DNA from: Candidatus Gorgyraea atricola
GTDB lineage: Bacteria > Omnitrophota > Gorgyraeia > Gorgyraeales > Gorgyraeaceae
Assembly: GCA_030765235.1 (NCBI GenBank)
Contig: JAVCCW010000025.1
Location: 240-64,239 of the forward strand
Length of the DNA stretch: 64,000 nt
Reading direction: 5' to 3'
Shown: one piece after another, positions 117 to 62,534 of the stretch
How positions within the stretch are numbered: position 1 is the first letter of the stretch
How the letters are laid out: every line of letters begins with the position of its first letter
The notes under the pieces: model-generated
Database searches by the model: none
The model's input: the letters and a program-made list of their open reading frames with translations, nothing else
What the model was told of the DNA's origin: nothing
Program-made: the position numbers and the translations under genes

Positions 117-413
117 ATGATTGCACCAAGAAGCAATTATTTTAAGAGCGTACTGTTCTCCATAGTTATAATTTTTATATTTCTGTCTGTGGCAGCAGGG
201 TTTCTGCATAATCACAGCGATTCAGAATTTCATAATGATTGTCCTGTGTGTATTTTAGCTATAACCGCATATATAATTATATTTTTCACAATCCTTCTTT
301 TTGTAGATTTTCCATATATTGGTTTTACTTATATTACGTTCCAAAAGTTTATATATATAGATTTTTACTCCTCAAATTTTTCTCGAGCTCCTCCATTTCT
401 CTTTAAAGTCTAA
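117..413 (+). CDS. Small hypothetical membrane protein with a CPVC motif
   Basis: ORF of 98 aa with two hydrophobic segments; no recognisable family; AT-rich. Confidence 0.3.
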   Translation: MIAPRSNYFKSVLFSIVIIFIFLSVAAGFLHNHSDSEFHNDCPVCILAITAYIIIFFTILLFVDFPYIGFTYITFQKFIYIDFYSSNFSRAPPFLFKV

Positions 414-468
414 TTTCGTCACTTAAAATTCACTTATACTACATAAAATAGAGGAGTGTTGCCTTTAT

Positions 469-1197
469 ATGAAGAAAATTTTATATCTAACCTTATTTTT
501 AATGGGTATTGCATCTTTTGCGTATGCAGCAAGGCCATTATCTACCGATGATGCAGGAACAGTAGAAAAAGGATTTTTTGAGATAGAGAACGGTTTTGAA
601 TATGTTAAACAAGATGATGAAGAATATAATTTGAGCTTTGCTTTGAAATACGGTATTAGTGAAAGTTTTCATATAGGAGTAGAGCTTCCATATAAGTTTA
701 TTAACTTTAAGGAAAGCGAGGATATGGATGGTATAGGAGATCTCGTAGTTAGTTCTAAATATAATTTCTTGGAGGATGAAGGGAATTTGCCCAGCATGTC
801 TTTAGGTGTCAGTATCAAGACAGAAACAGGAGATGCAGATAAAGGCTTAGGCACAAGTGAAGTAGATTATGGTGTTAATGGAATAATGAGTAAGGAAATA
901 GGAAGATTAATCTCGCATTTAAATGTAGGTTATACATTTGTTGGAGGGCCAGGAAAGGATACATCTTCCTATGGGCTTGCTATGGAATATCCAATAAATG
1001 AAAATTTGAATGTATTAGGAGAGATTACTGGTGAGACAGCTTTTGATGGAGATTTTGATGACAATCCTTTTAGCGGACTGGTGGGGGTAAATTATGCTAT
1101 AAATGCGATGGTAATGTTCGATCTTGGAATAGGCTTTGAGATTTCAGATGCAAGCCCTGATTATACTATTGTTACAGGTTTGACATTAGGATTTTGA
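469..1197 (+). CDS. Secreted outer-membrane beta-barrel-like protein
   Basis: Signal peptide MKKILYLTLFLMGIASFAYA; alternating beta-strand-like composition; C-terminal ...LTLGF (terminal Phe is typical of OMPs); RBS ggagtg upstream. Confidence 0.55.
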   Translation: MKKILYLTLFLMGIASFAYAARPLSTDDAGTVEKGFFEIENGFEYVKQDDEEYNLSFALKYGISESFHIGVELPYKFINFKESEDMDGIGDLVVSSKYNFLEDEGNLPSMSLGVSIKTETGDADKGLGTSEVDYGVNGIMSKEIGRLISHLNVGYTFVGGPGKDTSSYGLAMEYPINENLNVLGEITGETAFDGDFDDNPFSGLVGVNYAINAMVMFDLGIGFEISDASPDYTIVTGLTLGF

Positions 1198-1215
1198 TAT
1201 TTTCATTAAGGATTG

Positions 1216-1393
1216 TACTAGTCACTATTTGGTCACTAGCAATAATCCTCAAAATCACCAATTCTCATAACTTATTGTGAGATAATAGGTTACAACCATA
1301 CAATCCATCTAGGACATCAGATTTTCGATCTGACGACACCGGTTCGAATCCGGTTGGGGACGCCATTTTATCATAACTAATTGTAAAATAATA
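1216..1393 (+). repeat. Composite repeat unit, copy 1 (actagtcactatttggtcactagc / ccaattc / tRNA-like fragment / ttgtaaaataataag); related to 3281-3391
   Basis: Same sub-blocks recur at 3281-3391 in a slightly different order, flanking the 1622-3244 gene on both sides. Confidence 0.7.
1317..1365 (+). other. tRNA-derived 3' fragment A: anticodon arm tcaga-TTTTCGA-tctga (anticodon UUC, Glu-like), T-arm accgg-TTCGAAT-ccggt, acceptor 3' strand tggggac, G, CCA; no 5' half present
   Basis: Canonical T-loop TTCGAAT and encoded CCA; the matching 5' acceptor strand gtcccca is absent upstream. Confidence 0.6.
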
Positions 1394-1535
1394 AGATAGG
1401 AAAGTACTTAATAAGCTACTCTTGAAGTGTCGTCAGATTGTATCTCTGATGACATAGCGGGGAGGGTCGAATTTAGCAAGTTTGTAGTTTTTTCAATAAT
1501 GCACCCACTGTAGCCATCTTTGTCTCGAAATCGCA

Positions 1536-1621
1536 CCCCTTCCCAATAAGCTATATTTGTGATATACTTATAATTGAATAAGTAGCTCAACTTAGCCCCT
1601 GAGAAAGGGCGATTTTTTGCC
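1536..1621 (+). promoter_or_regulatory. Conserved promoter/leader module of paralog family member P1 (extended -10 TGaTATACT at 1560-1568; motif gagaaaggg-N-tttttt before the ATG)
   Basis: About 80 nt are conserved with 9170-9261 and more weakly with 62836-62922 (ccccttcccaataagcYatatttgtgRtata ... gcccYtgagaaagggYgRttttttg ... gattATG). Confidence 0.55.
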
Positions 1622-3244
1622 ATGATTATGACGAGATTTAGAAAACTGTTAATCACAAAAACAATAGGATTGGTTATAATAGTTACGTTCTCTGTAACTA
1701 CTACAGTCTACGGCATAGATTTGTCAGACTTCGAGCATCTTAGAAAGCCCCTTGATTTTAGCGATGTTTCTTTGGATGCGGACAAGAGACACAGCGATGC
1801 AAGAAAAGACTTGGTAGCTACAGAAGAAAATCTAAGACTTATAGATGAAAATGAAAGAAATGATATTTTGCAAGCGATTAAAATTTCCATAGAGGGAGTA
1901 AGAATAGCAAAGCGTCTAAAATTAATTTCTCGAAAACAAAAAAATGAAAATATTTCTTTGTTGCGAGAATTAAAAAGAAAAAATTCAATCTTTATTCGTT
2001 CGAATCCTGAAAAAATATTAAACATAGATTATTTTTTGGGGCCAATTCGTTCCAACGAAAGATTTATTTTTGCCCAAGAATTATTTAATAGGTCCTGGTT
2101 TAAAGGGCGTGGCCTGGAATACCTATCCGACCTTATTCTCTTTCGCACCCTATCTACCGATGACCTAAGAAATAAAATCATAGGCGAGGAGAAAGTTATC
2201 AAGTTAAAGCAAACAGTAGAATTTTACCTAGAAAACTATAGGAAGTCTCCCCAAGAAAGAAACCTAACATTGCTCTATTTTGAAGAATCGTTAGAAGATA
2301 TTAGGCCCAGAGTAACAGAAGCAATAAAAGAAGTGATTGACCAATTGTTTTATCAGGAATCTGAAGAACGCAATAAATTAATACAAAGCTTAGAAACGTT
2401 AAATATTTTTAGATCTAGGAAGGGGAATTGGTTATCTACTAGCCATTATTATTGGGTACTTTTTAAAGCCTTGTTTCTTGGGCATTCTGTTAAGAAAGAT
2501 GTTGTTCATCATGAGATGGGGCATCATAGTAGATACCTTTTTAATTTAGAAGACCCTTTCAGTGTATTTGGAAATATAGTAAGAGGACTTTTGGGTAAGG
2601 AAGACGAAAACGTACAAAAGGGGAAAGATTATGCCCGTTCTTATTTGGAGCAAAAAGTAACTCAAGGGGAACTCAAGAAAACAATAAGCGAAAAATGGTT
2701 AGAGGGTAGGACTAAAAAATATAGAGATCCTAAAGATTTTTTCTCTGACGAGGATTATAAGGCAGGATATTTTTTAGCAGGTCTTTTCTTGGGATTACAT
2801 GGGAACGATAAAAAACGGGCAATGAAATTTGCATTGGATTTAACTTTTGCCGAATGGTTTAATTGGACAAGAAAATTTTTGAAAAAATATTATTTTTTAA
2901 ATAACCTTTATCTTGCTTTAGGGCTGGTAGGTGATATTTTATTTGTAATATCCGGTGGATGGGGTATTTATATATTAACAGAATCAGCATGGGCAGTAGT
3001 TGGTGGCGTTATCGCCATTATTGTTCTCGGAGCATTTTTAATGACAGGGCATGAATCTTACCGTGAGAAATTATTCAATGAAAGAGTCGAAAGAGGAGAT
3101 GTTAAAGATTTTGGTGCACCAATTGCAGATATAGACCTTATAGATGAAGAAGCTCCTCAACATAAGACTGATGATGCAGATGCAGCAAATAATTTGACTT
3201 CCGAACTAATTAAGTTTAGAAAACTTCAAGCAGACGATTTATAA
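1622..3244 (+). CDS. Paralog family member P1: signal-anchored protein with an HExxH (HEMGHH) motif and C-terminal transmembrane segments; putative secreted or membrane metallopeptidase-like protein
   Basis: 540-aa ORF; N-terminus ...TTTVYGIDLSDFEHLRKPL is shared with the ORF at 62923 and loosely with the ORF at 9262; HEMGHH at about aa 297; hydrophobic C-terminal region. Confidence 0.6.
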   Translation: MIMTRFRKLLITKTIGLVIIVTFSVTTTVYGIDLSDFEHLRKPLDFSDVSLDADKRHSDARKDLVATEENLRLIDENERNDILQAIKISIEGVRIAKRLKLISRKQKNENISLLRELKRKNSIFIRSNPEKILNIDYFLGPIRSNERFIFAQELFNRSWFKGRGLEYLSDLILFRTLSTDDLRNKIIGEEKVIKLKQTVEFYLENYRKSPQERNLTLLYFEESLEDIRPRVTEAIKEVIDQLFYQESEERNKLIQSLETLNIFRSRKGNWLSTSHYYWVLFKALFLGHSVKKDVVHHEMGHHSRYLFNLEDPFSVFGNIVRGLLGKEDENVQKGKDYARSYLEQKVTQGELKKTISEKWLEGRTKKYRDPKDFFSDEDYKAGYFLAGLFLGLHGNDKKRAMKFALDLTFAEWFNWTRKFLKKYYFLNNLYLALGLVGDILFVISGGWGIYILTESAWAVVGGVIAIIVLGAFLMTGHESYREKLFNERVERGDVKDFGAPIADIDLIDEEAPQHKTDDADAANNLTSELIKFRKLQADDL

Positions 3245-3280
3245 AAAATTATTCTATTAAAAAGATGCTTGAACTAGTCA

Positions 3281-3391
3281 CTATTTGGTCACTAGCGATA
3301 AACTGAAAACTTACCAATTCGCCCAACCTGTTGTAAAATAATAAGTTGTAAGTATAATATTTTACTAGGACATCAGATTTTCGATCTGACG
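3281..3391 (+). repeat. Composite repeat unit, copy 2, including tRNA-derived fragment B (ctaggacatcagattttcgatctgacg, 3365-3391)
   Basis: 27-nt identity with 1309-1335; shares actagtcactatttggtcactagc and ttgtaaaataataag with copy 1. Confidence 0.7.
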
Positions 3392-3404
3392 CCGATAAAA
3401 CCCC

Positions 3405-3433
3405 TTGACATTGTATATACCATATGGTATATT
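3405..3433 (+). promoter_or_regulatory. Sigma70-like promoter of the Fic gene (TTGACA-17-TATATT) carrying a perfect 18-bp palindrome ATATACCATATGGTATAT (3415-3432); candidate autoregulatory operator
   Basis: Read directly from the sequence; the downstream gene encodes an N-terminal HTH. Confidence 0.5.
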
Positions 3434-3437
3434 TTAA

Positions 3438-4346
3438 ATGGTGATAAATATGAAAAATGGTATATTTTCCGTACAAGAGCAGATTAGTTATATTATGAAA
3501 ATGTCTGGTATGAACCAGGCAGATATAGCTAGGGCTTTAGAGGTGGATTACAAGACTGTAAACAGGTGGATTAACGAAGAAAGGGCACCGCATACTGCAC
3601 ATAGGCAAAAGCTTTATAAGTTATTTATCGAAAAAGTTGATTTGCCTTTATTGGCCGCTAGATTAAAAAAAAGATACAAGAATCCTCTGAAAACAATAAA
3701 AGAAAACCCCAGCATATATAATAAGTTCCTGGTAAGTTTGACCTATAATTCAGATGCGATCGAAGGCAGCACTTTAACAGAGAGTGATACGGAAAGGATC
3801 ATTATACAAGGAGATGTCTTGGCCAATAAAAGCCAGAAGGCACAACAAGAGGCAATAAACCATAAGACAGCGCTGGAGTTTGTATTTTCAAAAGCAACCA
3901 GGGATTTTAAAATAGACGAAGGTTTTATATTGTCGTTGCACAGAATGGTTATGCACGGGTTAAGCAAAGACGCGGGTCAATTAAGAAGGGTAAACGTAAA
4001 CATAAGAGGGCTTCAGAAAAAATTGTCCCACTACCAGTTTGTTCCGCAGCTATTTAAGGAGTTTACCTCAGATGTAAATACGTACGGGGGTAATGTGATA
4101 AAAAAGACAGCCATTAATCATTATGAATTTGAAGAGATGCACCCATTTAGTGATGGGAATGGCAGGGTGGGTAGGCTCATTTCCATAACTCAGCTATTAT
4201 CAAAAAACTTCCCTCCTTGTGTAATACAAAATAAAGACAGAGAGCGTTACTATGGTGTTCTGCAGATGGGAGACATACATAGGTTTGACCCTATAGCGAA
4301 TTTTTTCGCTGAAAGCATTTTGCAAGGATATGCTTTGTTGGAATAA
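3438..4346 (+). CDS. HTH (XRE-like) plus Fic domain protein (adenylyltransferase family), class II architecture with an N-terminal inhibitory motif
   Basis: Fic motif HPFSDGNGRVGR; N-terminal HTH ...MNQADIARALEVDYKTVNRWI; SDAIEG matches the (S/T)xxxE(G/N) inhibitory motif; the true start may be the ATG at 3450. Confidence 0.8.
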   Translation: MVINMKNGIFSVQEQISYIMKMSGMNQADIARALEVDYKTVNRWINEERAPHTAHRQKLYKLFIEKVDLPLLAARLKKRYKNPLKTIKENPSIYNKFLVSLTYNSDAIEGSTLTESDTERIIIQGDVLANKSQKAQQEAINHKTALEFVFSKATRDFKIDEGFILSLHRMVMHGLSKDAGQLRRVNVNIRGLQKKLSHYQFVPQLFKEFTSDVNTYGGNVIKKTAINHYEFEEMHPFSDGNGRVGRLISITQLLSKNFPPCVIQNKDRERYYGVLQMGDIHRFDPIANFFAESILQGYALLE

Positions 4347-4391
4347 CTTTCCTCCTTGACCATCCTGATTTTTCTTCTATAATATAACGAC

Positions 4392-6224
4392 ATGCGTTAT
4401 ACCAGAGATCAAATATTATCCGCGCTCAAACAATATTGGGGTTATACTTCTTTCCGGCCTTTACAGGAAGAGATAATTTTTTCTATTCTCGAGGACAAAG
4501 AGAGCCTTACAGTCCTGCCCACTGGCGGGGGAAAGTCACTCTGCTTCCAATTGCCGGCGCTTCTTAGGGATGGCATGGCAGTTGTCATTTCTCCGCTTAT
4601 ATCTCTCATGAAAGACCAGGTGGACGCGTTAAAAGATATAGGAATAGCCGCGGTATATTTAAATTCCAGCTTATCTATTAAGGAACAAAGAAAAATAATA
4701 GCGCTTATCCAGGAGCAAAAAATAAAACTTCTCTATATCTCGCCTGAGCGTTTGCAGAACGAAGAGACAGTTGATCTCTTGCGCTCGGTACAGGTCTCCT
4801 TTTTTGTAATAGATGAGGCGCATTGTATAAGCCACTGGGGGCATGATTTCAGGGCTGACTATCGTAATCTCAGGATTATAAAGGAGATGTTCCCGTCGAT
4901 GAGTGTCCACGCGTTTACAGCCACTGCTACAAAAGCAGTGCAGGATGATATTGTGGCCCAGCTAAAATTTGACGACGCGAAAGTACACATTGCTTCTGTA
5001 GACCGGTCTAATCTGACATACAGGGTGGTGCCCCGCACGATCATTATACAGCAGATAACTGATGTGCTGAAAAAACACGTTAACGAACCAGGCATTATAT
5101 ATTGTCTGCGCAGGGATGATGTTGACACGATATCTGATAAATTAAATAAACTTGGTTTCGAGAACCTGCCTTATCACGCGGGCCTTACAGATGAAGTGCG
5201 CCACGTGAACCAGGATAAGTTCGTGCGTGAACAGGTCAATATAATAGTGGCAACAGTTGCCTTTGGCATGGGTATTGACCGTTCAAATATCCGTTTTATC
5301 ATACACGCTGCTATGCCCAAAAGCCTGGAATATTATCACCAGGAAACAGGACGCTCTGGCCGCGATGGACTCCCGTCATATTGTTACATGTTTTTTGGCG
5401 GCAGGGATTATCGCACCTGGAAGTTTCTGTCGGAAAAATCCTCTAATCAGGATACTCTCGTTGCTAAACTAAATACAATATATCATTTTTGCTCAAAGCC
5501 TCAGTGCAGGCACAAGGCTATCGCAGCTTATTTTGACCAGGTGTATGATAAAAATTCCTGCGCGGCCTGCGATTATTGCCTGGATGAATTTGACATGGTC
5601 GTGAATCCTTTAAAGATAGGGCAGGACATATTGTTCTGTATATACGAGGTCACACAGGATATCTCTTACGGATTTGGCGCAGGCCATATAGCCAATATAT
5701 TAAAGGGGCATCTGACCGATAATGTTGAAAGAAGAGGACATCATAAGTTAGCCAAGTTTGGTATGATGACCGGCACTTCGCTGGAATTCATAAGATACAT
5801 GATAGAGCAGATGATAGGCCAGGATTTTCTTGTAAGGGAGGGAGCGTATTCTACACTTTCGCTTACGCCTTCCGCGATAAAGGTGCTAAAAGGCGAGATC
5901 ACTCCGACGCTGGTCAAGCCGCTACTGGCCAAAAAGAAAAAAGAGATCGCGAAGAAAAGAAAAGAGATAAAAGAAAAAGAATGGCAGGGCATAGATCAGG
6001 AATTATTTCAGATGCTTCGCAGGAAACGAGCAGAGCTTGCGTTTAACCATCGTGTCCCAGCCTTCATAATCTTTGGAGACAAATCCTTAAAAGACATGGC
6101 CATCATAAAACCTACCACAAAAGAAACCTTTGCCACAGTATTTGGAGTAGGCGCCAAAAAAGCAGAGACCTACGCAGACACCTTTACTTCAATAATCAGC
6201 GAATACCTGAAGTCATATGACTGA
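4392..6224 (+). CDS. recQ: ATP-dependent DNA helicase RecQ
   Basis: Q-motif FRPLQ, Walker A PTGGGKS, DEAH box, zinc-binding cysteines, HRDC-like C-terminus; promoter TTGACC-16-TATAAT at 4356-4383. Confidence 0.9.
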   Translation: MRYTRDQILSALKQYWGYTSFRPLQEEIIFSILEDKESLTVLPTGGGKSLCFQLPALLRDGMAVVISPLISLMKDQVDALKDIGIAAVYLNSSLSIKEQRKIIALIQEQKIKLLYISPERLQNEETVDLLRSVQVSFFVIDEAHCISHWGHDFRADYRNLRIIKEMFPSMSVHAFTATATKAVQDDIVAQLKFDDAKVHIASVDRSNLTYRVVPRTIIIQQITDVLKKHVNEPGIIYCLRRDDVDTISDKLNKLGFENLPYHAGLTDEVRHVNQDKFVREQVNIIVATVAFGMGIDRSNIRFIIHAAMPKSLEYYHQETGRSGRDGLPSYCYMFFGGRDYRTWKFLSEKSSNQDTLVAKLNTIYHFCSKPQCRHKAIAAYFDQVYDKNSCAACDYCLDEFDMVVNPLKIGQDILFCIYEVTQDISYGFGAGHIANILKGHLTDNVERRGHHKLAKFGMMTGTSLEFIRYMIEQMIGQDFLVREGAYSTLSLTPSAIKVLKGEITPTLVKPLLAKKKKEIAKKRKEIKEKEWQGIDQELFQMLRRKRAELAFNHRVPAFIIFGDKSLKDMAIIKPTTKETFATVFGVGAKKAETYADTFTSIISEYLKSYD

Positions 6225-6411
6225 ATATATTTGCCCTCACTGCAAGCAGCCTGTTTATGATGACGATGCAATAAGGTGTCTTTATTGCGGGGAAAGTCTG
6301 AACCGTAGCATAGGCTTTATGGCACGCATAAAATATCCACCGTATAAAACAATAATCATCGCTGCCGTAATATTGGTCTTAGTAAGTTTTATCGCATTAA
6401 TAATTAGATAA
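6217..6411 (+). CDS. Small zinc-ribbon (CPHC...CLYC) protein with a C-terminal transmembrane helix
   Basis: 64-aa ORF overlapping the recQ stop; CxxC-N14-CxxC followed by a hydrophobic helix. Confidence 0.45.
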   Translation: MTEYICPHCKQPVYDDDAIRCLYCGESLNRSIGFMARIKYPPYKTIIIAAVILVLVSFIALIIR

Positions 6412-6422
6412 GAGGTGAAAAA

Positions 6423-7208
6423 ATGAAATTACCGAGTTCTTTAGTGGTGTTTGATCTTGAGACGACCGGTACTTGGATTGAGAAGGACAGGATAGTCGAG
6501 ATCGGTATGATCAAGTTATTGCCGGATGGTTCAAGAGAGGCTTATGTAAAACGCGTTAATCCTGGCATACCAATTCCACCTAATGTCAGTCGTATTATTA
6601 ATATCGTGGACGGTGATGTTAAAGACGCGCCGCGATTTAAGGATATAGCCAAGGAGGTGCAGGAGTTTATAGGCGATTCTGATCTTGGCGGATTCAATAT
6701 CCTGAGATTTGACCTGCCTGTATTGGAGCGCGAGTTTTTTGACGCGGGCTTCAGTTTTTATTGGCGCGAGCGTAATATATACGACGCGCAAAAAGTTTAT
6801 CACATACACGAAAAAAGGGACCTGACAGCCGCTTACCGGTTATACTGCGGAAAAAATCTTGATAACGCGCATTCCGCCCTGGGTGACGCTGAAGCAACGG
6901 TCGAGATATTTGACGCGCAGATCAAAAAGTACGGGGCCGTGGAGCAGGGCATAGAGTCTCTGAAAGATTTTGATTATGAACGCTCCAGCGCTTATTTTGA
7001 TAAAGGCCGAAAGTTTTGCTGGTGGAATGGCGAACTGTATCCAATGTTCGGTAAATATGGAAAGAAAAAACACATAAAGGACATCCTCAAGAATGACCGT
7101 CGATATTTAGAATGGGTGATTACCAAGGATTTTAGCGAGGAAATCAAGGTGATGATAAAAAAAGCCCTGGCCGGAGAATTGCCGCAGGCCCCGTCATTTG
7201 ATAATTAA
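6423..7208 (+). CDS. DEDDh 3'-5' exonuclease (DnaQ / DNA polymerase III epsilon-like) with a C-terminal extension
   Basis: Exo I motif VVFDLETTG; Exo III ...HSALGDAEAT; RBS agaggtg. Confidence 0.8.
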   Translation: MKLPSSLVVFDLETTGTWIEKDRIVEIGMIKLLPDGSREAYVKRVNPGIPIPPNVSRIINIVDGDVKDAPRFKDIAKEVQEFIGDSDLGGFNILRFDLPVLEREFFDAGFSFYWRERNIYDAQKVYHIHEKRDLTAAYRLYCGKNLDNAHSALGDAEATVEIFDAQIKKYGAVEQGIESLKDFDYERSSAYFDKGRKFCWWNGELYPMFGKYGKKKHIKDILKNDRRYLEWVITKDFSEEIKVMIKKALAGELPQAPSFDN

Positions 7209-7223
7209 AAGGAGGTTTAGCGT

Positions 7224-7877
7224 ATGACTTATCTAAGGATAATTTTAATATTAATATTCCTTTCAATCGTTTCTTGGGTAGGGGAGTCCAATGTTTTTGC
7301 TGAAAAATTAAAACCCATTGAGCTTTTAAAACCTCAGCTCGAAAGAGGCGTATTGTTAATGCAGGCGCTCAAGGAAAGAAAATCAGAACGTGAGTTCAGC
7401 ACCAAGGAGCTTTCCCTGGAACTTATTTCAAATCTTTTATGGGCTGCTTCTGGCGTAAACAGGCCTGATTCTGGAAAACTTACATCTCCCACTGCAAAAA
7501 ACTGGCAAGAAATCGAGATATATGTGGCTATGGAAAAAGGATTATATTTATACAATGCCCAAAAGCATACCTTAGAACCGATCATGGCTAAGGATGTGCG
7601 GGAGTTTGTCGGGCTTCAGTCTTTTACGCAAATAGCTCCTCTTGATCTTATATATGTAGCTGATTTTGCAAAAATGGGTGGACATAATGAAGGGACAATT
7701 TTTTATTCAGCGACCGATACAGGGTTTATCAGTCAGAATGTATATCTTTTCTGTGCATCAGAAGGGCTGGCAACTGTTGTCCTGGGCTGGGTTGATAAAC
7801 CAGCCTTGTCAAAAATCATGAACCTTAGAGACGATCAAAGTATAATACTTACACAGCCAGTAGGTTATCCAGAGTAA
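7224..7877 (+). CDS. Secreted nitroreductase-superfamily (SagB-type dehydrogenase-like) protein
   Basis: Signal peptide; RxSPTAKNWQEIEIYV resembles the SagB-type RxSPSAGxxYPxExY region. Confidence 0.55.
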   Translation: MTYLRIILILIFLSIVSWVGESNVFAEKLKPIELLKPQLERGVLLMQALKERKSEREFSTKELSLELISNLLWAASGVNRPDSGKLTSPTAKNWQEIEIYVAMEKGLYLYNAQKHTLEPIMAKDVREFVGLQSFTQIAPLDLIYVADFAKMGGHNEGTIFYSATDTGFISQNVYLFCASEGLATVVLGWVDKPALSKIMNLRDDQSIILTQPVGYPE

Positions 7878-7887
7878 GGGAAATTTT

Positions 7888-9111
7888 ATGAAACGTAAAA
7901 AAGTTGAACTCGTGGCTCCAGCAGGATCCTGGGCTGGGCTACAGACTGCTATAAAATATGGGGCAGATAGTGTGTATTTTGGCGTAAGAGATTTGAACAT
8001 GCGCCACAGCGCAGAGAATTTTGATTTACTCGAGCTGGACAAGGCAATGAAGTTATTGCATAAAAACAATAGAAAAGGTTACCTGACTTTAAATACTATC
8101 ATCTACAATAACGAACTTAGCAAGATCAGGAAGATCCTGAAAAAGGCTAAAAAAGCAGGCGTGGACGCGGTTATTGCTTGGGACATGGCTGTTCTTAAGA
8201 TAGCTAAAGAATTAAAACTCAAGGTTCATCTTTCAACTCAGGCAAGTGTTTCAAATTTTTCTGCAGTGAAATTCTATAGTTTATTAGGGGTTAAAAGGAT
8301 TGTGCTGGCAAGGGAGTGTAGTTTCGAAGCAATAAAGGATATCATTAAATCCATCAGAAAAGAGAAGATAGGCTGCGAGATAGAGACATTTATCCACGGC
8401 GCCATGTGCGTGAGCCTATCAGGAAGATGCTTTTTATCGTCGTATGCATTTGCAAAATCAGCAAATAGAGGCAAGTGTATCCAGCCCTGCAGGAGGCGAT
8501 ATCTTATCACTGACCTGGAAGAAAAGGGCAATAAGTATATTTTGGGCAAGGATTATATATTGAGTCCCAAGGATCTATGCACAATAGATTTTATTGACAG
8601 ACTTATAGAAATAGGCGTAACTTCTTTTAAAATAGAAGGCAGGATGCGTAACCCTGAGTATGTGAAGGAGGTAACTTCTGTATACAGGACTGCGATAGAC
8701 GCGTTCTTTAAAGATAGCCTGAGCGCGCAGTTGAAAAAAAATCTCAAGCGCAGACTGAATTCGGTCTACAATAAAGGCTTTACGAACGGATTTTTCTGGG
8801 AGACACCTAATGATACAGGTGCTGGCCCTGTAGACAGTAAACACGAAAAGATCTTTTTAGGAGAGGTGGTTAATTTTTACAATAAAAATAACGTCGCGGC
8901 CATCCATATAAGGAACCAAGGTGTTAAGATAGGAGACAGGATCGCAATCTACGGAAAAAGCACACCCTTATCCATCGCAGAAGTAAAAGAGATGCAGATA
9001 GCCGGCAAGGCAGTAACCTTTACAGAAAAAGGCAAACAAGTAGGCATAAAACTACCCTTCAAAGTAAGACGCAACGACAAGGTCTTCTTTTACAAGCAAA
9101 AACATGCTTAA
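7888..9111 (+). CDS. Peptidase U32 family protein (collagenase-like; YhbU/RlhA family)
   Basis: N-terminus KKVELVAPAGSWAGLQTAIKYGADSVYFG and a central cysteine-rich region typical of U32. Confidence 0.8.
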   Translation: MKRKKVELVAPAGSWAGLQTAIKYGADSVYFGVRDLNMRHSAENFDLLELDKAMKLLHKNNRKGYLTLNTIIYNNELSKIRKILKKAKKAGVDAVIAWDMAVLKIAKELKLKVHLSTQASVSNFSAVKFYSLLGVKRIVLARECSFEAIKDIIKSIRKEKIGCEIETFIHGAMCVSLSGRCFLSSYAFAKSANRGKCIQPCRRRYLITDLEEKGNKYILGKDYILSPKDLCTIDFIDRLIEIGVTSFKIEGRMRNPEYVKEVTSVYRTAIDAFFKDSLSAQLKKNLKRRLNSVYNKGFTNGFFWETPNDTGAGPVDSKHEKIFLGEVVNFYNKNNVAAIHIRNQGVKIGDRIAIYGKSTPLSIAEVKEMQIAGKAVTFTEKGKQVGIKLPFKVRRNDKVFFYKQKHA

Positions 9112-9149
9112 CTTTACATTTAAGGTCTTGCTTTAAATGTAAAGTTAAG
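9107..9149 (+). repeat. REP-B palindromic element copy 1 (cttaactttacatttaa-ggtcttgc-tttaaatgtaaagttaag); hairpin terminator candidate containing the U32 stop codon
   Basis: Near-perfect 17-bp inverted arms; the same element is found inverted at 49817-49856. Confidence 0.7.
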
Positions 9150-9169: not shown

Positions 9170-9261
9170 CCCCCTTCCCAATAAGCCATATTTGTGGTAT
9201 AATATACTTGTATGAGCATCTCAACCAGGCCCTTGAGAAAGGGTGGTTTTTTGGGTGGATT
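9170..9261 (+). promoter_or_regulatory. Conserved promoter/leader module of paralog P2 (extended -10 TGgTATAAT at 9195-9203)
   Basis: Aligns with 1536-1621. Confidence 0.55.
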
Positions 9262-10170
9262 ATGGAGAGAATTAAAAAACAGTTAACTGTGATAACGTTA
9301 TTTGTGTTTGTATTTACAGCCACAGCTTATAGCGCAGATGGGCATCTAAGGATACCGCTTTTATCAAAAGAGAAAGAGGCCCTGCAGAAATTAAGAGATT
9401 TATTTTATAATGACGACATGAACTTGCGAGAACGCTTGCATCTGCAGGGCATAACAGAAAAAGAAATTGACATTATCGGAAAAGAGACTAAAGAGCCTCA
9501 AGACTACAGATATTTTTATGAATACGAATTAGGGATTGTGCAAATCAAATCTTTGATGCAATATCTTAAAGGGCCAGTAATTTTAGTTATAGAAGGAGAG
9601 ATGGGTAGCGGCAAATCTACGTTAATACATAGGCTGGCAACAGGACGCGATTTTGGTATAAACCCTTCAGCTATCACTGTATTTGACGAAGATATTTTAG
9701 ACATGGAGCATGACGAAGACGAAATGAGAGATATAATAGAATTATTTATCGAAACGATAGAAACTGATAAGAATTTTATAATTTATGATGGGCATTTTTT
9801 TATACAGCATGTTCGCACGTTGCCTAGTGTATACGACAGAACGAAAGAGTTACTGAAAAAGTTTTATATTATTAAAGTTAGCATAGAAGCTATCTGGGAT
9901 AGAGAAGGGCGTATACTGACAAAAAACGAAGATTTTGTTACTATACCCACAATTGGTGACCTAGACTTTGATGATAAGTTGCAAAGCCAGAAAAGATATA
10001 TTATGATTAAGCCCGATGCGATACTACAAAAGGCAAAAGGGGATTCTTCAAAGGACTTATCCCGAGATGCTGTCCAACTCGGCAATAAGAAAAAAATCAT
10101 AAAAGAACTAAATCGTCTAAAAGTTAAGACGCTGCATTTTCTTAGGAAAATTGGTTTTAGATTTTTGTGA
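9262..10170 (+). CDS. Paralog family member P2: secreted or signal-anchored P-loop NTPase (nucleoside/nucleotide-kinase-like Walker A)
   Basis: Start at the conserved gattATG (the ORF track starts at TTG 9208 inside the leader); signal peptide MERIKKQLTVITLFVFVFTATAYSA; Walker A VIEGEMGSGKST; N-terminus ...LRIPL shared with P1 and P3. Confidence 0.6.
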   Translation: MERIKKQLTVITLFVFVFTATAYSADGHLRIPLLSKEKEALQKLRDLFYNDDMNLRERLHLQGITEKEIDIIGKETKEPQDYRYFYEYELGIVQIKSLMQYLKGPVILVIEGEMGSGKSTLIHRLATGRDFGINPSAITVFDEDILDMEHDEDEMRDIIELFIETIETDKNFIIYDGHFFIQHVRTLPSVYDRTKELLKKFYIIKVSIEAIWDREGRILTKNEDFVTIPTIGDLDFDDKLQSQKRYIMIKPDAILQKAKGDSSKDLSRDAVQLGNKKKIIKELNRLKVKTLHFLRKIGFRFL

Positions 10171-10214
10171 TGTAGAAGAGAGTAAGCAGTCTTCCTAATA
10201 ATCCCATCCAAATA

Positions 10215-10250
10215 TCAGATTTTCGATCTGACTCCGACTGGTTCGAATCC
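10215..10250 (+). other. tRNA-derived fragment C (anticodon arm tcaga-TTTTCGA-tctga followed by ggTTCGAATCC)
   Basis: Same anticodon arm as fragments A and B; T-loop-like TTCGAATCC; the acceptor region is not canonical. Confidence 0.5.
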
Positions 10251-10295
10251 ACCGGGCGGAGGGGCCCACGAACAGAATACCCCACGCACCATAAT
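10247..10295 (+). repeat. Repeat R2, copy a (atccaccgggcggaggggcccacgaacagaataccccacgcaccataata)
   Basis: About 90% identical to 34633-34684. Confidence 0.65.
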
Positions 10296-10307
10296 ATGGG
10301 ATAAAGA

Positions 10308-10346
10308 GATTGCTTCGGCCCCGGTAAATCGGGACCTCGCAATGAC
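10308..10346 (-). repeat. Palindromic repeat family GTCATTGCGAGG-[stem-loop]-CCGAAGCAATC, copy i (reverse orientation)
   Basis: The terminal inverted repeat ATTGC...GCAAT encloses a GC hairpin. Confidence 0.65.
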
Positions 10347-10659: not shown

Positions 10660-10709
10660 GATTGCTTCGCGGAGTTTACCCCGAGCGAAGTCGAGGGGCC
10701 CGCAATGAC
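10660..10709 (-). repeat. Palindromic repeat family GTCATTGCG...CGAAGCAATC, long copy ii (reverse orientation); about 85% identical to 62706-62754
   Basis: gtcattgcgggcccctcgacttcgctcggggtaaactccgcgaagcaatc on the minus strand. Confidence 0.65.
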
Positions 10710-10729
10710 GTATTGGAGGGTGATAAGAT

Positions 10730-15035: not shown

Positions 15036-15074
15036 AGCTGCTTATAGCAGCTGTAGGGCACACTTTAGTGTGCC
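15036..15074 (+). repeat. REP-A element copy 1 (agctgcttatagcagct + gtagggcacactttagtgtgcc double hairpin)
   Basis: Identical 39-mer at 20508-20546; second hairpin also at 27315-27336. Confidence 0.7.
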
Positions 15075-15085
15075 AAAAGAGTTTC

Positions 15086-16518: not shown

Positions 16519-17787
16519 ATGAAAAATATAGCTGCTGTAATTTTAGCTGCGGGCGAGGGTACGAGGATGCGTTCCTCGATCCCCAAAGTGCTTCATACTA
16601 TTTGCGGGAGGTCGATGATAGACTATCCGCTGCTTACCCTAAAATCTATCGGCATACAGAATATAGTAGTTGTGGTCGGCCACAGGTCTGGCCTGGTACA
16701 AGAAAATCTAACAGGAGTAAAATGCATTAAGCAGGATAAACTTCTTGGCACTGGAGACGCGGTCTTAAAGACGAAAAATGTTCTTTTAAAAGATAATAAA
16801 ATAGACATGGTTCTTATAACATGCGGGGACGTGCCTTTATTAAAGGCCGAGACATTGCGGAGGCTTATCTCAAGACACCTCTCTACGCGTTCTGGCTGTA
16901 CCCTTCTTACTTCTCATCTGAAGAACCCTACCGGTTATGGCAGAATTTTACGTTCTGGCAATGATAAGATCGTGAAGATAGTCGAAGAAGTGGATGCCTC
17001 GATCTATGAGAAGGTCACAGAAGAGATAAATGTAGGCGTGTATTGTTTTGATAAAGATGCGCTTTTTGACGCGCTCCAAGAAATAAAGCCAAACAATAGA
17101 AAAAAGGAATATTACCTGACAGATACAATAGAGATCCTGGCCAAATCAGGCATAGTAGTAGATTCTATATCCACTGATGAGACTGAAGAATTTTTGGGTG
17201 TTAATACGCGGAGTGACCTGATGCAGGCAGAGGAGGTTGTGAGGCGCAGGGTCCTGGCTGATATCATGCAGAAGGGCGTGAGCATCATTGACCCGAACAA
17301 TACCTATATACAGGAGGGCGTTGAGATAAAAAGGGACACGGTAATATATCCCTATACATTTATAGATAACGGTGTTAAAATAGGCCAGAAATGCAGCATC
17401 GGCCCGTTCGCGCGATTGCGGCAAGGTACTGTACTGGATGAGGAAGTCTCCATTGGAAACTTTGTGGAGATAGTGCGCTCTAAAGTAGGCAAGGCCACAA
17501 AGATCCGCCATCAGTGCTATATAGGCGATACTGTAATAGGCAAGCGCGTCAATATTGGCGCGGGCACAATAGTCGCAAATTACGACGGAAAGCATAAGCA
17601 TAAGACTGTCATTGATGACAATGCTTTTATAGGTACAGGCACTGTATTAATAGCGCCTGTCAAGATAGGCAAGGGTAGTGTGACTGGCGCTGGCAGCGTT
17701 GTCACCAAGAACCATAACGTACCTGCGGGCAGGACGGTGATCGGCGTGCCTGCGAAGATACTAAAAAGGACCAAACACTCTGTGTAA
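16519..17787 (+). CDS. glmU: Bifunctional UDP-N-acetylglucosamine pyrophosphorylase / glucosamine-1-phosphate N-acetyltransferase
   Basis: AAVILAAGEGTRMRS N-terminus; C-terminal left-handed beta-helix hexapeptide repeats. Confidence 0.88.
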   Translation: MKNIAAVILAAGEGTRMRSSIPKVLHTICGRSMIDYPLLTLKSIGIQNIVVVVGHRSGLVQENLTGVKCIKQDKLLGTGDAVLKTKNVLLKDNKIDMVLITCGDVPLLKAETLRRLISRHLSTRSGCTLLTSHLKNPTGYGRILRSGNDKIVKIVEEVDASIYEKVTEEINVGVYCFDKDALFDALQEIKPNNRKKEYYLTDTIEILAKSGIVVDSISTDETEEFLGVNTRSDLMQAEEVVRRRVLADIMQKGVSIIDPNNTYIQEGVEIKRDTVIYPYTFIDNGVKIGQKCSIGPFARLRQGTVLDEEVSIGNFVEIVRSKVGKATKIRHQCYIGDTVIGKRVNIGAGTIVANYDGKHKHKTVIDDNAFIGTGTVLIAPVKIGKGSVTGAGSVVTKNHNVPAGRTVIGVPAKILKRTKHSV

Positions 17788-17858
17788 TGTTTAATGTGTA
17801 ATGTGTAATGTACCAAGCTGCCCCAATTACATTACACCTTACACCTTACACATTACAC
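17782..17858 (+). repeat. Inverted pair of tandem 7-mer arrays: (gtgtaatgt / ttaatgt / gtaatgt x2) ... (acattac / accttac x2 / acattacac), forming a long hairpin between glmU and prs
   Basis: Read directly; arms 17782-17812 and 17828-17858 are reverse complements; the left arm overlaps the glmU stop codon. Confidence 0.7.
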
Positions 17859-20507: not shown

Positions 20508-20546
20508 AGCAGCTTATAGCAGCTGTAGGGCACACTTTAGTGTGCC
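20508..20546 (+). repeat. REP-A element copy 2
   Basis: Identical to 15036-15074. Confidence 0.7.
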
Positions 20547-20574
20547 GAACAAGAGCAAGCAAGGGAGGATAAGG

Positions 20575-33818: not shown

Positions 33819-34364
33819 ATGATAGAAGTACCCGAGTATCTAAAAAAATTATTAGAAATAGAAGAAAAGGTAAAGTTGAAAAGATACTGCAATGATATAA
33901 TCGTAACACAGGAAGATTTTGTAAAATTAATAACCAATTGTTATAAAATTGGTTATCTTCACCAAATCAAACATCACGACTTTGTGTCTTCTCATCTTCA
34001 TCCTTCAGAAAAAGAGAAAGACGCATTAGCTTCAGTTACAGTTGGAGAAAGAATTACAGGAGATGCTAAAAAGTTTATGAATAAAATTTCTCAAATCTTC
34101 AAAGAACGCAGATATCTTGTTGCCCATATATTTTTTAACGAAAAGAAATGGCATATGTTCTACTTTGACCAAAGAGACGCAGAAAGTCAAAGGAAAAACC
34201 ATTGGAAAAAAGGGGCTCACATTCATTTCGTGAATTATTTATGGCCGCAGTATGATTTGAATAAATTATGGGAAATATTTGATATGGCTAATGCATCTGC
34301 CGGGGGTAAATTACATATCAAGTTTGAAGGGCAAGATTATGATAGAATTAATTCAACTATTTAA
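33819..34364 (+). CDS. Hypothetical protein, candidate cargo of a degraded integrative element
   Basis: ORF in frame with, and fused to, the integrase remnant; internal ATG at 33819 (MIEVPEYLKK...); no recognisable domain. Confidence 0.4.
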   Translation: MIEVPEYLKKLLEIEEKVKLKRYCNDIIVTQEDFVKLITNCYKIGYLHQIKHHDFVSSHLHPSEKEKDALASVTVGERITGDAKKFMNKISQIFKERRYLVAHIFFNEKKWHMFYFDQRDAESQRKNHWKKGAHIHFVNYLWPQYDLNKLWEIFDMANASAGGKLHIKFEGQDYDRINSTI

Positions 34365-34632
34365 GAGGTTTGATGTATATAACCCTTGTATAACCCTTGT
34401 ACCGTTTGCGAATTCTCCTACCAATGTGTCCCCAAGTTTATAACAGCTAAAAAGAAGGTCTGCGGAGCCCCATTCCAAATTCTAATCGATAAGCTATTTA
34501 TTATTTGTAACTAATTGCGGACAATTCTAATGGATTGTTTGGTGATATTCAAGAATTTGGAACGGGGCAGGCGAATTGAAAATTTAGCCTGCGATGGATA
34601 AGTGGGGCGTGGGGTGTTCTGTGAGTGGGAGG

Positions 34633-34684
34633 ATCCACACCGGGCGGAGGGGCCCGCGAACAGAATACCCCGCGCCCCACGATA
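34633..34684 (+). repeat. Repeat R2, copy b
   Basis: About 90% identical to 10247-10295; an 11-mer tandem duplication tataacccttg x2 lies nearby at 34376-34397. Confidence 0.65.
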
Positions 34685-34842
34685 CGTGATAAAAGGTTAC
34701 CCTTGAGCGAAGCCCCATACCAAAATCTTCGATTTGATACGGGGCAGGCAGACCTTCTTTTTAGCTGCTCCTGTAGCGTGAATTTCAGTTGCGATTTGTC
34801 TGGGTTATGGTAGCATAATGACAAGAGAGAAGGAGGAGTGAA

Positions 34843-35241
34843 ATGGTAAAAAGATTAGGGGTGTTTGTTTTTATAGTTTTAGTAGCTAGTATGTTAAGCA
34901 TGTTATGTTATGCTGAAGATCCTGGTATCTATGTGGCGGAACATTATAGGTACTTGACGGAGATCATCGAATGGAATATGGGTGATCCCAACAAGTGTGT
35001 TGAAAAGGCTAAGCGCTTCTTTGAAAGTATTGACAAAGAAGAATATGCGCGTAATTGGGAAGCGTCAATGAACAAGTTTCTTGGTGAAGAGCCATCTGAA
35101 GAATCCATGGAAAGCGAACCAGATAAATCTATGATGGAATATAATAATGCAATAGCACGTTTTATGCAGAAATATCCAGATCATGGCAGAAAGATACTGG
35201 AATTATCAATAGACATTATGGGCGAATCAAAAGCGAACTGA
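34843..35241 (+). CDS. Small secreted hypothetical protein
   Basis: Signal peptide MVKRLGVFVFIVLVASMLSMLCYA; RBS aaggaggag. Confidence 0.5.
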   Translation: MVKRLGVFVFIVLVASMLSMLCYAEDPGIYVAEHYRYLTEIIEWNMGDPNKCVEKAKRFFESIDKEEYARNWEASMNKFLGEEPSEESMESEPDKSMMEYNNAIARFMQKYPDHGRKILELSIDIMGESKAN

Positions 35242-49816: not shown

Positions 49817-49856
49817 ATAACTTTACATTTAAAGCAAGACCTTAAATGTAAAGTTA
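49817..49856 (-). repeat. REP-B palindromic element copy 2 (inverted relative to copy 1); bidirectional terminator candidate between the convergent guaA and lpxB genes, containing the lpxB stop codon
   Basis: taactttacatttaa-agcaagacc-ttaaatgtaaagttaa; the loop is the reverse complement of the loop at 9124-9131. Confidence 0.7.
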
Positions 49857-50981
49857 ACTCAGGAATTTTTGGATTAGGTGTGCGGTGCGGTCGGATGCGC
49901 CTGGTGAGCCTAGTTTTTGTTTGACCTGTTTTAGCTCGAGTTTGATTTCGTCCTGGTTTTGGAGTGTTTCTAGAGTTTCTCTTGCTATATTTTTCGCGTT
50001 TACCTGAAACTGTACCAGTTCTGGTACGATCCTTTTTCCTGCCACTACATTTACCAAACCTATATCTGGGATTTTTATCAAATTTCTTGCCAAAAACCAG
50101 GTGATCAGCGATGTCTTGTAGATAATCACCATTGGCTTTTGCATGATGGCTGTTTCGAGCGTGGCGCTTCCAGAAGAGAGGATTACCAAATCAGCTATAT
50201 CCATTATTTCATAGGGCCTGTTTTCGAGTGAATGCGGTTTTATCTTTGAGCGGGCAATAATATTGTTATAAATAGATCTATCCAATTCTTTCCTCCGAGA
50301 AAGTATAAATTCAACATCAGGTAATTTTTCTTTTATGAGCTCGCATGCCTTTAGCATAGAAGGGAGGTGTTTTTCAACCTCTTTTGCGCGAGAACCAGGA
50401 AGGAGCGCAATCTTTTTAGAGTGGTGATTAAGATGCAGGTGCTTTATGGTTTCTTCTTTTTTCCAGCCAGATCTTACTATGTCTAAGAAAGGATGCCCTA
50501 CGAAACTTACCTTTACGCCAGCCTGTTTATATAATTCCTCCTCAAACCCAAATATCACGATCATCTTATCAACGCATTTTTTTATTTCCGCGACTCTCTC
50601 TTTTCCCCACGCCCATATCTGAGGGCTGATGTAATATATTACAGGGATATTTTTTGCTTTCGCCTGTTTTGCGAAACGCATGTTAAATCCTGGGTAGTCT
50701 ACCAGAATAACCGCGTCAGGGCGTCTTGATTCAAGTAGATCGACCAGTTTTTTGAAGAGCTTCTTGAATACGCTGAGATGTTTTATCACCTCTATAAACC
50801 CCACGACTGCGAGCTCGACAATGTCATAGACAATATCGACGCCAGCTTCTTTCATCTTTTTCCCGCCAACGCCGAATATTTCTATGTGGGGATTGAGTGT
50901 TTTAAGGGATCGCGCGAGGTGTGCAGCCTGCAGGTCGCCAGATGCCTCGCCTGCGATGATCATAAGTCGCTTCTTCTTCAT
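49854..50981 (-). CDS. lpxB: Lipid-A-disaccharide synthase
   Basis: MKKKRLMIIAGEASGD... Confidence 0.88.
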   Translation of the reverse strand: MKKKRLMIIAGEASGDLQAAHLARSLKTLNPHIEIFGVGGKKMKEAGVDIVYDIVELAVVGFIEVIKHLSVFKKLFKKLVDLLESRRPDAVILVDYPGFNMRFAKQAKAKNIPVIYYISPQIWAWGKERVAEIKKCVDKMIVIFGFEEELYKQAGVKVSFVGHPFLDIVRSGWKKEETIKHLHLNHHSKKIALLPGSRAKEVEKHLPSMLKACELIKEKLPDVEFILSRRKELDRSIYNNIIARSKIKPHSLENRPYEIMDIADLVILSSGSATLETAIMQKPMVIIYKTSLITWFLARNLIKIPDIGLVNVVAGKRIVPELVQFQVNAKNIARETLETLQNQDEIKLELKQVKQKLGSPGASDRTAHLIQKFLS

Positions 50982-60929: not shown

Positions 60930-60982
60930 CGTGTCGAGGGACATCTTGCGACGTTTGTGTAATGTGGAAGGTGTAATGTGTA

Positions 60983-62444: not shown

Positions 62445-62534
62445 GGAGAGGTGGCAGAGCGGCCGAATGCGGTGGTCTTGAAAACCATTATGGGCTTACG
62501 CTCATCGGGGGTTCGAATCCCTCCCTCTCCGCCA
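62445..62534 (+). tRNA. tRNA-Ser (anticodon TGA), long variable arm, CCA encoded
   Basis: Acceptor ggagagg/cctctcc, anticodon loop cTTGAaa, variable arm ttatgggcttacgctcat, T-arm ggggg-TTCGAAT-ccctc. Confidence 0.8.

Follow-up and report, generated by a model that had tools for sequence, protein, structure and literature searches.

The closest described counterparts of the element reported here are three kinds of Sec signal peptide: ESPR (from autotransporters and two-partner secretion proteins), YSIRK-G/S, and KxYKxGKxW. Each has a conserved sequence and is found on differing passengers. Many of the carriers are very large surface or secreted proteins, and the conserved sequence is thought to steer the route, the timing, or the site of export. 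Here we describe a similar N-terminal module that begins three open reading frames (ORF1, ORF2, and ORF3) in a 64 kb stretch of DNA ("the window") from a metagenome-assembled genome (MAG) of Candidatus Gorgyraea atricola. The organism is a member of the Omnitrophota, a phylum of the PVC (Planctomycetes-Verrucomicrobia-Chlamydiae) group. Omnitrophota are widespread, uncultured, ultra-small bacteria; at least some of them are predators or parasites, and they encode the largest known proteins. We propose, with a probability of roughly 0.6, that the three genes belong to an Omnitrophota-specific family that is set by its 5' end: a Sec signal peptide and, behind it, a motif for sorting or processing, under the control of a common promoter and leader.

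Unlike the ESPR, YSIRK, and KxYKxGKxW sequences, the module matches no existing model, is restricted to Omnitrophota (among named sequences), and has a fixed length of 29 residues. It also has about 13 conserved residues past the predicted cleavage site, a conserved promoter and leader, and, frequently, a cargo of cytoplasmic type. These three kinds of signal are analogous to the module, not homologous to it. Neither the N-termini of ORF1 and ORF3, nor isolated 59-residue N-termini, matched the models for them in Pfam or NCBIfam, and a Pfam scan of 82 family members did not find them either. More generally, the module is unannotated: Pfam and NCBIfam contain no model for it, and two papers on the giant proteins of Omnitrophota mention generic signal peptides, not the conserved sequence or the leader described here.

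We built a profile from the three N-termini in the window and the N-terminus of an orthologue of ORF1 (alignment A6, 48 positions) and searched 1.84 billion cluster representatives with HMMER. At least 186 protein clusters carry the module (E ≤ 1e-3). Nine of the matches reach E ≤ 1e-10, and almost all of the 186 align from residue 1. The first-pass annotation of this DNA described three copies and allowed that there might be nothing elsewhere, which is decisively not the case. The proteins range from 38 to 3,534 amino acids (median 452). All 10 members with a source name are proteins from Candidatus Omnitrophota/Omnitrophica MAGs, and a scan of viral contigs did not find the module. Exactly three members lie in the window according to the family's hidden Markov model (HMM), which does not match the window's other proteins with signal peptides.

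The consensus of 147 N-termini is M-[IL]-K-F-K-K-x-Y-N-x-K-I-I-S-L-x-V-A-V-V-F-L-x-N-S-T-[AV]-Y-G-I-D-L-[SP]-x-K-x-H-L-R-x-P-[LV]. Among its most strongly conserved positions are five that lie outside the hydrophobic core: Y28 (conserved in 137 of 147), G29 (127), L38 (144), R39 (145), and P41 (119). Near the start, K6 is kept in 138 of the 147 N-termini and K11 in 130. At conserved residues, synonymous codons vary from locus to locus (TTG, CTG, CTA, or TTA for leucine; CCT, CCC, or CCG for proline; AAG or AAA for K11), so the coding part of the module is held by selection on the protein and not by recent copying of DNA. Eleven members (P0008, P0024, P0026, P0040, P0044, P0047, P0055, P0065, P0067, P0082, and P0108) form a subfamily in which LRK(P/Q/H)LDF(N/S) is followed by a shared block, '…(R/K)Y(L/I)C…LAA…H…IL', which suggests a larger conserved N-terminal domain in some members.

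The first 29 residues satisfy the sequence criteria for a Sec signal peptide that is cut by signal peptidase I: a charged n-region, a hydrophobic h-region followed by a polar c-region, and small residues at -1 and -3. These features were tabulated for 136 members. The net charge of the n-region is +2 to +4 in 131 of them (mean +3.2). The apolar core has a median of 12 residues (10th to 90th percentile, 12-15) and is followed by the polar residues N-S-T. Position -1 is G, S, or A in every member; at -3, 125 members have V, A, G, T, C, or S. The length of the signal is fixed, with the tyrosine at residue 28 in 120 members. Signals of other types are not present. There is no lipobox (L-[AS]-[GA]-C), as position +1 is I, T, V, M, L, or A and there is no conserved cysteine. 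There is no Tat motif (S/T-R-R-x-F-L-K), as the n-region, M-x-K-F-K-K-x-Y-N-x-K, lacks RR. And there is no type IV pilin or pseudopilin motif (G|F(M)-T-L-x-E), as the conserved glycine comes after the hydrophobic core.

On our proposal, Sec would export the protein and signal peptidase I would cut it after G29. The newly exposed IDLS…HLRxPL would then act as a second-step signal for sorting or processing. It might send the protein across the outer membrane or onto it, to the cell surface, or to a host or prey cell. The oomycete RxLR and the Plasmodium PEXEL (RxLxE/Q/D) are eukaryotic host-targeting motifs that lie just behind a signal peptide. The likeness to the module consists of a signal peptide, a short conserved linear motif no more than tens of residues from the cleavage site, diverse and modular C-termini, and large lineage-specific families. 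Unlike those motifs, I-D-L-S-x-K-x-H-L-R-x-P-L abuts the cleavage site and has another sequence, so any correspondence would be a functional analogy only.

In the window, the three loci have these parts:

1536-1568, forward strand: promoter block of locus 1, with a -35 element TTCCCA (1540-1545), a 17-nt spacer, and a TG-extended -10 element TATACT (1563-1568).
1569-1627, forward strand: leader of locus 1, without a Shine-Dalgarno sequence, with a hairpin GCCC-CTGAGAAA-GGGC (1595-1610), a run of six Ts (1613-1618), GCCATGATT, and ATG.
1628-1714, forward strand: predicted signal peptide of ORF1, residues 1-29 (MTRFRKLLITKTIGLVIIVTFSVTTTVYG), with predicted cleavage after G29; family HMM 66 bits.
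1715-1753, forward strand: motif at the predicted mature N-terminus of ORF1 (IDLSDFEHLRKPL), from repeat comparison, the ORF1/ORF3 alignment, and the family statistics.
1754-3244, forward strand: cargo of ORF1, with HEMGH (about 2510-2524) and two hydrophobic helices near the C-terminus (about 2897-3052).
9171-9203, forward strand: promoter block of locus 2, with a -35 element TTCCCA (9175-9180), a 17-nt spacer, and a TG-extended -10 element TATAAT (9198-9203).
9204-9261, forward strand: leader of locus 2, with a hairpin GCCCTT-GAGA-AAGGGT (9229-9244), a run of six Ts (9247-9252), GGGTGGATT, and ATG.
9262-9360, forward strand: divergent module of ORF2, with a predicted signal peptide of residues 1-24 (…TATAYS) and then ADGHLRIPL.
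9361-10170, forward strand: P-loop NTPase-like cargo of ORF2, with a Walker A motif GEMGSGKST (9595-9621).
62821-62849, forward strand: promoter of locus 3, TTGCAA and TATACT separated by 17 nt, with a TG extension.
62850-62922, forward strand: leader of locus 3, with a weak hairpin CTTTTA-CCAAAAA-TAAAGG (62885-62903), a run of seven Ts (62907-62913), ATCTGCATT, and ATG.
62923-63048, forward strand: module of ORF3, with a predicted signal peptide of residues 1-29 (…NTTVYG) and then TDLSDIKQLRIPL; family HMM 70.8 bits.
63049-64000, forward strand: start of the cargo of ORF3, which is rich in HEAT repeats and continues past the window.

The similarity among the three proteins is confined to their first 43-55 residues, and their mature parts are unrelated, just as had been proposed at the outset. 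ORF1 and ORF3 align over residues 1-43 only (44% identity, E = 3e-7), and ORF2 and ORF3 align at the N-terminus only (E = 0.004). BLASTP does not detect any N-terminal similarity between ORF1 and ORF2. ORF2 is a diverged member with a four-residue deletion (TATAYS|ADGHLRIPL); it scores 21 bits against the family HMM (E = 2.5e-5). Its homologue P0155, which is 50% identical, reads VYSADLLEREHLRPYL at the module. The start of ORF1 had been placed at 1622. The gene stands, and its start moves to the ATG at 1628, as in the NCBI annotation and in alignment with the other family members. In the MAG, the identical protein (100%) is annotated as hypothetical and is encoded on a contig of 73,763 bp.

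The upstream DNA was also said to be conserved at all three loci. This holds in sequence for loci 1 and 2, and for locus 3 it holds only in architecture (an extended -10 element, a weak hairpin, a run of seven Ts, and ATTATG). Loci 1 and 2 share a 31-nt block (1536-1566 and 9171-9201) that fits the first-pass annotation's degenerate string with no mismatches, and none of 100 shuffled sequences matched it. Over the 95 nt before the ATG, the two loci are 77% identical, whereas the background in the family is roughly 50-60%. The hairpin GCCCYTGAGAAAGGG and then six Ts are present at both loci. The -10 element ends 59 nt before the ATG at locus 1, 58 nt before it at locus 2, and 59 nt before it at the family locus L010; a spacing of 58-59 nt holds for the majority of loci. 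The leader of locus 3 exceeds those of loci 1 and 2 by 14 nt, and neither ccccttccc... nor gcccYtgagaaaggg is found at this locus. Across both strands of the 64 kb, T6-N(4-10)-ATTATG occurs at only these three sites. A canonical AGGAGG site precedes most other genes in the window and is not present at the three loci.

Could the resemblance be generic, that is, ordinary signal peptides and consensus promoter elements in an AT-rich genome? Locus 3 shares with the others only the extended -10 element, the T-run, and ATTATG; the window has many extended -10 promoters (16 loose matches); and ORF1 and ORF2 are not recognizably similar by BLASTP. But the profile is specific (186 N-terminal matches among 1.84 billion representatives), the window's other signal-peptide proteins are not matched, T6-N(4-10)-ATTATG is limited to the three loci, and the 31-nt block is absent from the shuffles. 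Furthermore, a DNA pattern that was back-translated from the consensus retrieved eight metagenome loci from the Joint Genome Institute (JGI), each of which is a true member and has the same leader. We consider this explanation to be refuted by the specificity of the profile, the metagenome loci, and the unmatched ordinary signal peptides, and we give it practically no chance of being correct. Five more loci were found by contig look-up. A search with the leader DNA in the genome collection gave no match, and neither did the pattern TVYGxDLSDxxxLRxPL in the genome or metagenome collections; that pattern is over-specific, as the last D of DLSD is rare in the family.

We compared the leaders of 16 family members that have their own promoter. 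In all 16, a hairpin is followed by (usually) an A, a run of 5-7 Ts, another 8-11 nt (usually 9, with the consensus GCCNNNATT), and the ATG. At least six different stems occur, and the two arms covary so that complementarity is kept: TGGCGT/ACGCCA, AGCCT/AGGCT, CTCCT/AGGAG, GCCCTT/AAGGGT, TAGCCCT/AGGGCTA, and GATATTT/GAGTATC. In an anchored hairpin test against shuffled sequences, the mean z is 1.6 and Fisher's combined p is 1e-7. In another 12 members, whose annotated starts are over-long, the frame reads '…GYFFxQI-M', which reflects an identical placement of the T-run. We rejected an N-terminal extension in this frame ('EKGRFF…'), because the upstream frame at locus 1 contains a stop codon but lacks a start codon and because L007 also has an in-frame stop; the leader is therefore non-coding. 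A second hexamer that resembles a -10 element directly follows the -10 element (TATACTTATAAT, TATAATATACT, and CATACTTTATATAG). Two other readings of this DNA, one with a sigma-54 promoter and one with the -10 element placed within the T-run (which would give a leaderless mRNA), were rejected by eye, as the spacing and the bases fit poorly.

Some members are in tandem: L007 has an array of four (206-5320) and L005 has two. Two internal genes of the L007 array lack the promoter and the hairpin-U leader, as expected inside an operon. The two paralogues in L005 are 81% identical upstream. In L001, L004, L005, and L010, the upstream regions form a cluster with 76-84% identity, and the cargo is unrelated. 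Locus 1 is 77% identical upstream to its paralogue at locus 2 and 65% identical to its own orthologue. These identities indicate concerted evolution of the promoter and leader within genomes or lineages.

The common promoter and hairpin-U leader could place all members under one control, which might be attenuation, antitermination, or translation that does not depend on a Shine-Dalgarno sequence. The known systems nearest to this are intrinsic terminators and attenuators in 5' leaders, and the processive antitermination of long operons by RfaH (with ops), LoaP, and UpxY, and by phage Q at PR'. The likeness lies in a hairpin and U-run within about 45 nt of the promoter and before the coding region, and in a set of genes that includes very long ones. 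The second -10-like hexamer is also reminiscent of the sigma-dependent pause that phage Q uses. Unlike those systems, the leaders have short stems (3-7 bp), with no ops or other known element and no Rfam match, and we identified no gene for an antiterminator. (Rfam 15 gave only tRNA matches, both at the gathering threshold for the window and 12 loci and at E ≤ 1 for 1150-1640.) As the U-run occupies the position of a Shine-Dalgarno sequence, a translational role is equally possible.

Over evolution, the module has been joined to many unrelated cargo domains. For instance, P0003 and P0007 both have about 3,500 residues, and their alignment is limited to residues 1-56. P0003 is the full protein of ORF3 on the same contig (3,534 amino acids, and itself partial at the end of the contig). 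That ORF3 is a HEAT-repeat protein, as first described, is confirmed by its HEAT_2 repeats (E = 3.5e-27). Of the 82 members that we compared to Pfam, most have no domain in the cargo. The remainder are scattered, mostly among enzyme families of cytoplasmic type: S-adenosylmethionine (SAM) methyltransferases, radical SAM with B12-binding domains, phosphomannose isomerase, aldo-keto reductase, GT2 and GT1 glycosyltransferases, HATPase_c, and HAD hydrolases, along with pentapeptide repeats and subtilase. One member is annotated as an ABC1/UbiB kinase. In P0016 (L012, 10001-14272), the module is fused to SecA_DEAD, SecA_PP_bind, SecA_SW, and HTH_8, which is an odd cargo for an exported protein; a gene with an rve_3 integrase domain adjoins it.

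The cargo of ORF1 has no match in Pfam, NCBIfam, or the sequences of the PDB. Its orthologue P0002 is 63% identical and retains the HExxH (HEMGH in ORF1 and HETGH in P0002) that makes ORF1 a candidate zinc metalloprotease. For the cargo of ORF2, a candidate P-loop kinase or NTPase, there are P-loop matches in Pfam, NCBIfam, and the PDB, all of them far below the cutoffs, and the Walker A motif is conserved in P0155. AlphaFold models that were built from two-sequence alignments are unusable (predicted local distance difference test score 34 for ORF1 and 48 for ORF2). PADLOC gave no convincing match for ORF1 or ORF2.

Both ORF1 and P0002 adjoin defense-type genes in their genomes: an HTH-Fic protein at 3438-4346 of the window (which matches SoFic/PDC-S04 in PADLOC, E = 1e-36) and an AbiU-like protein at 1-1317 of L001 (E = 4e-29). 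In two Omnitrophota genomes, a gene for a U32 peptidase lies just upstream of a family member: at 7888-9111 of the window, with ORF2, and at 7483-8706 of L011, with P0007 and with a Dus gene in between. The cargo of these two members is unrelated.

A constant N-terminus with unrelated C-termini recalls the polymorphic toxins (Rhs, CDI, and MAF-type), as do the tandem arrays (such as the four genes in L007) and the location of members in variable, low-GC regions near defense genes. Unlike those toxins, the constant part is only about 45-55 residues and includes no large delivery domain. We also saw no immunity genes or orphan C-terminal cassettes, and members carry complete enzymes or giant repeat proteins in place of short toxin tips.

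Several results weigh against our proposal. Taken as single sequences, the leaders do not fold more stably than shuffled sequences (z of -0.2 to -1.1, and +0.6 for ORF3). Several stems have just 3-4 bp (the full range is 3-7 bp), and a hairpin that weak may fail to terminate transcription; in a terminator scan of the window, only the leader of locus 2 passes. No partner machinery, such as a peptidase, a secretin, or an antiterminator, was identified. Above all, much of the cargo is of cytoplasmic type and depends on cofactors (SAM methyltransferases, radical SAM/B12, GT2, the SecA-like ATPase, the P-loop NTPase, and HATPase_c), so it is a poor fit to simple export to the periplasm. This is the main difficulty. 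It points either to delivery to a place where ATP and SAM are available, such as prey or host, or to a membrane tether.

The second of these possibilities amounts to an uncleaved N-terminal segment that serves as a membrane anchor or docking tag, with YGIDL…HLRxPL as a juxtamembrane interaction motif. Such an anchor would suit the cytoplasmic, cofactor-dependent cargo, including SecA with HTH_8, the annotated ABC1/UbiB kinase, and the P-loop of ORF2, and a 2026 preprint on the long proteins of Omnitrophota debates membrane-anchored cytoplasmic topologies. However, there are 3-5 lysines or arginines before the core and a net charge of only about +1 after it, so by the positive-inside rule the cargo should be outside. 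In addition, an apolar core of about 12 residues is too short for a stable membrane-spanning helix, and the residues at -1 (G/S/A in 136/136) and -3 (small in 125/136) are like those of signal peptidase I substrates. We think that an anchor is unlikely.

As to our own proposal of a cleaved signal with a sorting motif and a common control, the first-pass annotation had already argued that the genes are regulated together and have an export or sorting signal in common. The N-terminal tag in at least 186 clusters supports this, with the function being predicted from sequence.

The same annotation also proposed that the cargo was shuffled at tRNA-like attachment (att) sites. In this scheme, the 5' module would be a handle for recombination, and the similarity among loci would reflect recent exchange of DNA and not function. 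The features that bear on it are:

1213-1366, forward strand: copy 1 of a direct repeat (1213-1335) and a tRNA-Glu(UUC)-like 3' fragment (1302-1366, ending in GGGGACGCCA).
3269-3395, forward strand: copy 2 of the direct repeat (3269-3391), which ends in a tRNA anticodon-arm fragment (3365-3395), directly downstream of ORF1.
10205-10260, forward strand: a third tRNA-Glu-like fragment, 35 nt downstream of ORF2, without the 100-nt arm of the repeats.
62445-62534, forward strand: an intact tRNA-Ser(TGA) gene, 389 nt upstream of ORF3.

The tRNA-derived fragments (1302-1366, 3365-3395, and 10205-10260) and the tRNA-Ser gene (62445-62534) are thus adjacent to the loci, as had been reported. The fragment at 1302-1366 matches the Rfam tRNA model at 29.4 bits (model positions 9-63). 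ORF1 lies between 123-nt direct repeats that are 79% identical and contain the tRNA fragment; an arm of about 100 nt with short internal repeats (TAGTCACTATTTGGTCACTAG) accompanies the tRNA-Glu fragment. The orthologue of ORF1 is in a different context, between direct repeats of about 105 nt and of unrelated sequence. Those repeats include a unit of about 30 nt (GAAATAATAGCCGTCCTATTCAGGTACACCCTA), of which six or more copies surround the orthologue (L001, 1318-1460 and 3340-3575). In DNA, homology between the two loci is limited to a span that begins 39 nt before the ATG and stops about 120 nt short of the stop codon.

A tRNA-Glu 3' fragment in direct repeats on both sides of ORF1 is what one sees with cis-mobilizable or integrative elements in tRNA genes. 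Unlike with those elements, there is no integrase at the loci and no intact tRNA-Glu gene in the window, and the likeness applies to ORF1 only, and to ORF2 in part; it does not characterize the family as a whole. Also in keeping with shuffled cassettes are the low GC content of the ORF1 and ORF2 regions, the defense genes beside ORF1 in both genomes, the rve_3 integrase gene beside P0016, a locus 1 promoter that is closer to that of its paralogue at locus 2 than to that of its own orthologue, and tRNA genes within 500 nt of the members in L005, L009, L006/L007, and window locus 3. But of 13 independent family loci, just 4 have an intact tRNA gene within 500 nt; fragments bring the number to 6, and the other 7 have neither a gene nor a fragment. 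A Pfam scan of the open reading frames in 117-9111 found no integrase domain, and there is no recombinase at the window loci. A fragment adjoins ORF2 on just one side, with no flanking repeat, and ORF3 has no fragment at all. The repeats that flank ORF1 lie outside of the module and are unrelated to those that flank its orthologue. Finally, the synonymous differences, and the retention of the module across distant genomes in proteins that have diverged past 50%, indicate purifying selection, and the module is absent from viral contigs. Shuffling at tRNA-like att sites is therefore not supported, as no result ties tRNA sites to an exchange of the cargo, and we think it very unlikely that the module is a handle for recombination. 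The data fit accessory genes in variable, tRNA-associated regions, and ORF1 possibly moves as a unit.

Other repeats lie near these features or elsewhere in the window. A second tRNA-like scrap (cgtcagaTTGTATCtctgatg…gggagggtcgaat) is at 1430-1470, between the tRNA-Glu fragment and the ORF1 promoter; ARAGORN and Rfam were negative for it. Directly following the third tRNA-Glu-like fragment is a 56-nt repeat (10250-10305) that is 88% identical to 34638-34693. The latter copy sits in a long imperfect hairpin (34596-34683, GGGGCGTGGGGTGTTCTGT…ACAGAATACCCCGCGCCCC), and a scan of 34300-34900 against Rfam (E ≤ 1) found no family, only a chance match to a microRNA. Intergenic palindromes that resemble repetitive extragenic palindromic elements ('cattgcgag…cgaagcaatc') are at 10309-10345, 10660-10710, and 62700-62760 (between tRNA-Ser and the ORF3 promoter).

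An intergenic double-palindrome repeat is present at 15036-15077 and 20508-20549 (95% identical, AGCWGCTTATAGCAGCTGTAGGGCACACTTTAGTGTGCC), with a similar tail before 27332. It overlaps mechanically called GTG starts, and the true starts are probably the downstream ATGs. Blocks of a GTGTAAT repeat at 17781-17810 and 60956-60985 (90% identical) each end at the ATG of an open reading frame (17808 and 60983). Two genes have long, nearly identical palindromes (TAACTTTACATTTAA…TTAAATGTAAAGTTAA) at their 3' ends (9109-9148 and 49818-49857), which look like a shared bidirectional terminator element.

The tag gives a sequence rule for listing a candidate secretome or effector set in any Omnitrophota genome, and it is a handle for phylogenetic profiling of the machinery that would recognize it. 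The module is also compact (about 95 nt of regulatory and about 130 nt of coding DNA), which suits it to reporter fusions. There are two warnings for annotation. Many members were called with over-long starts that read '…GYFFxQIM', and names that are based on the cargo alone (methyltransferase, SecA-like, HEAT) mask a shared localization signal.

A more ambitious version of our proposal is that the module is both the address label and the on-switch of an Omnitrophota repertoire of effectors or surface proteins: the motif would route dozens of giant proteins and enzymes of cytoplasmic type out of the cell, and a promoter-proximal terminator would keep every member off until a dedicated antiterminator or translational activator frees the regulon. 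We offer this tentatively and consider it improbable. If it is true, then the module would be a bacterial counterpart of host targeting of the RxLR/PEXEL type, with delivery possibly into or onto prey or host cells, and it could explain how giant Omnitrophota proteins with "intracellular" domains are recognized for export.

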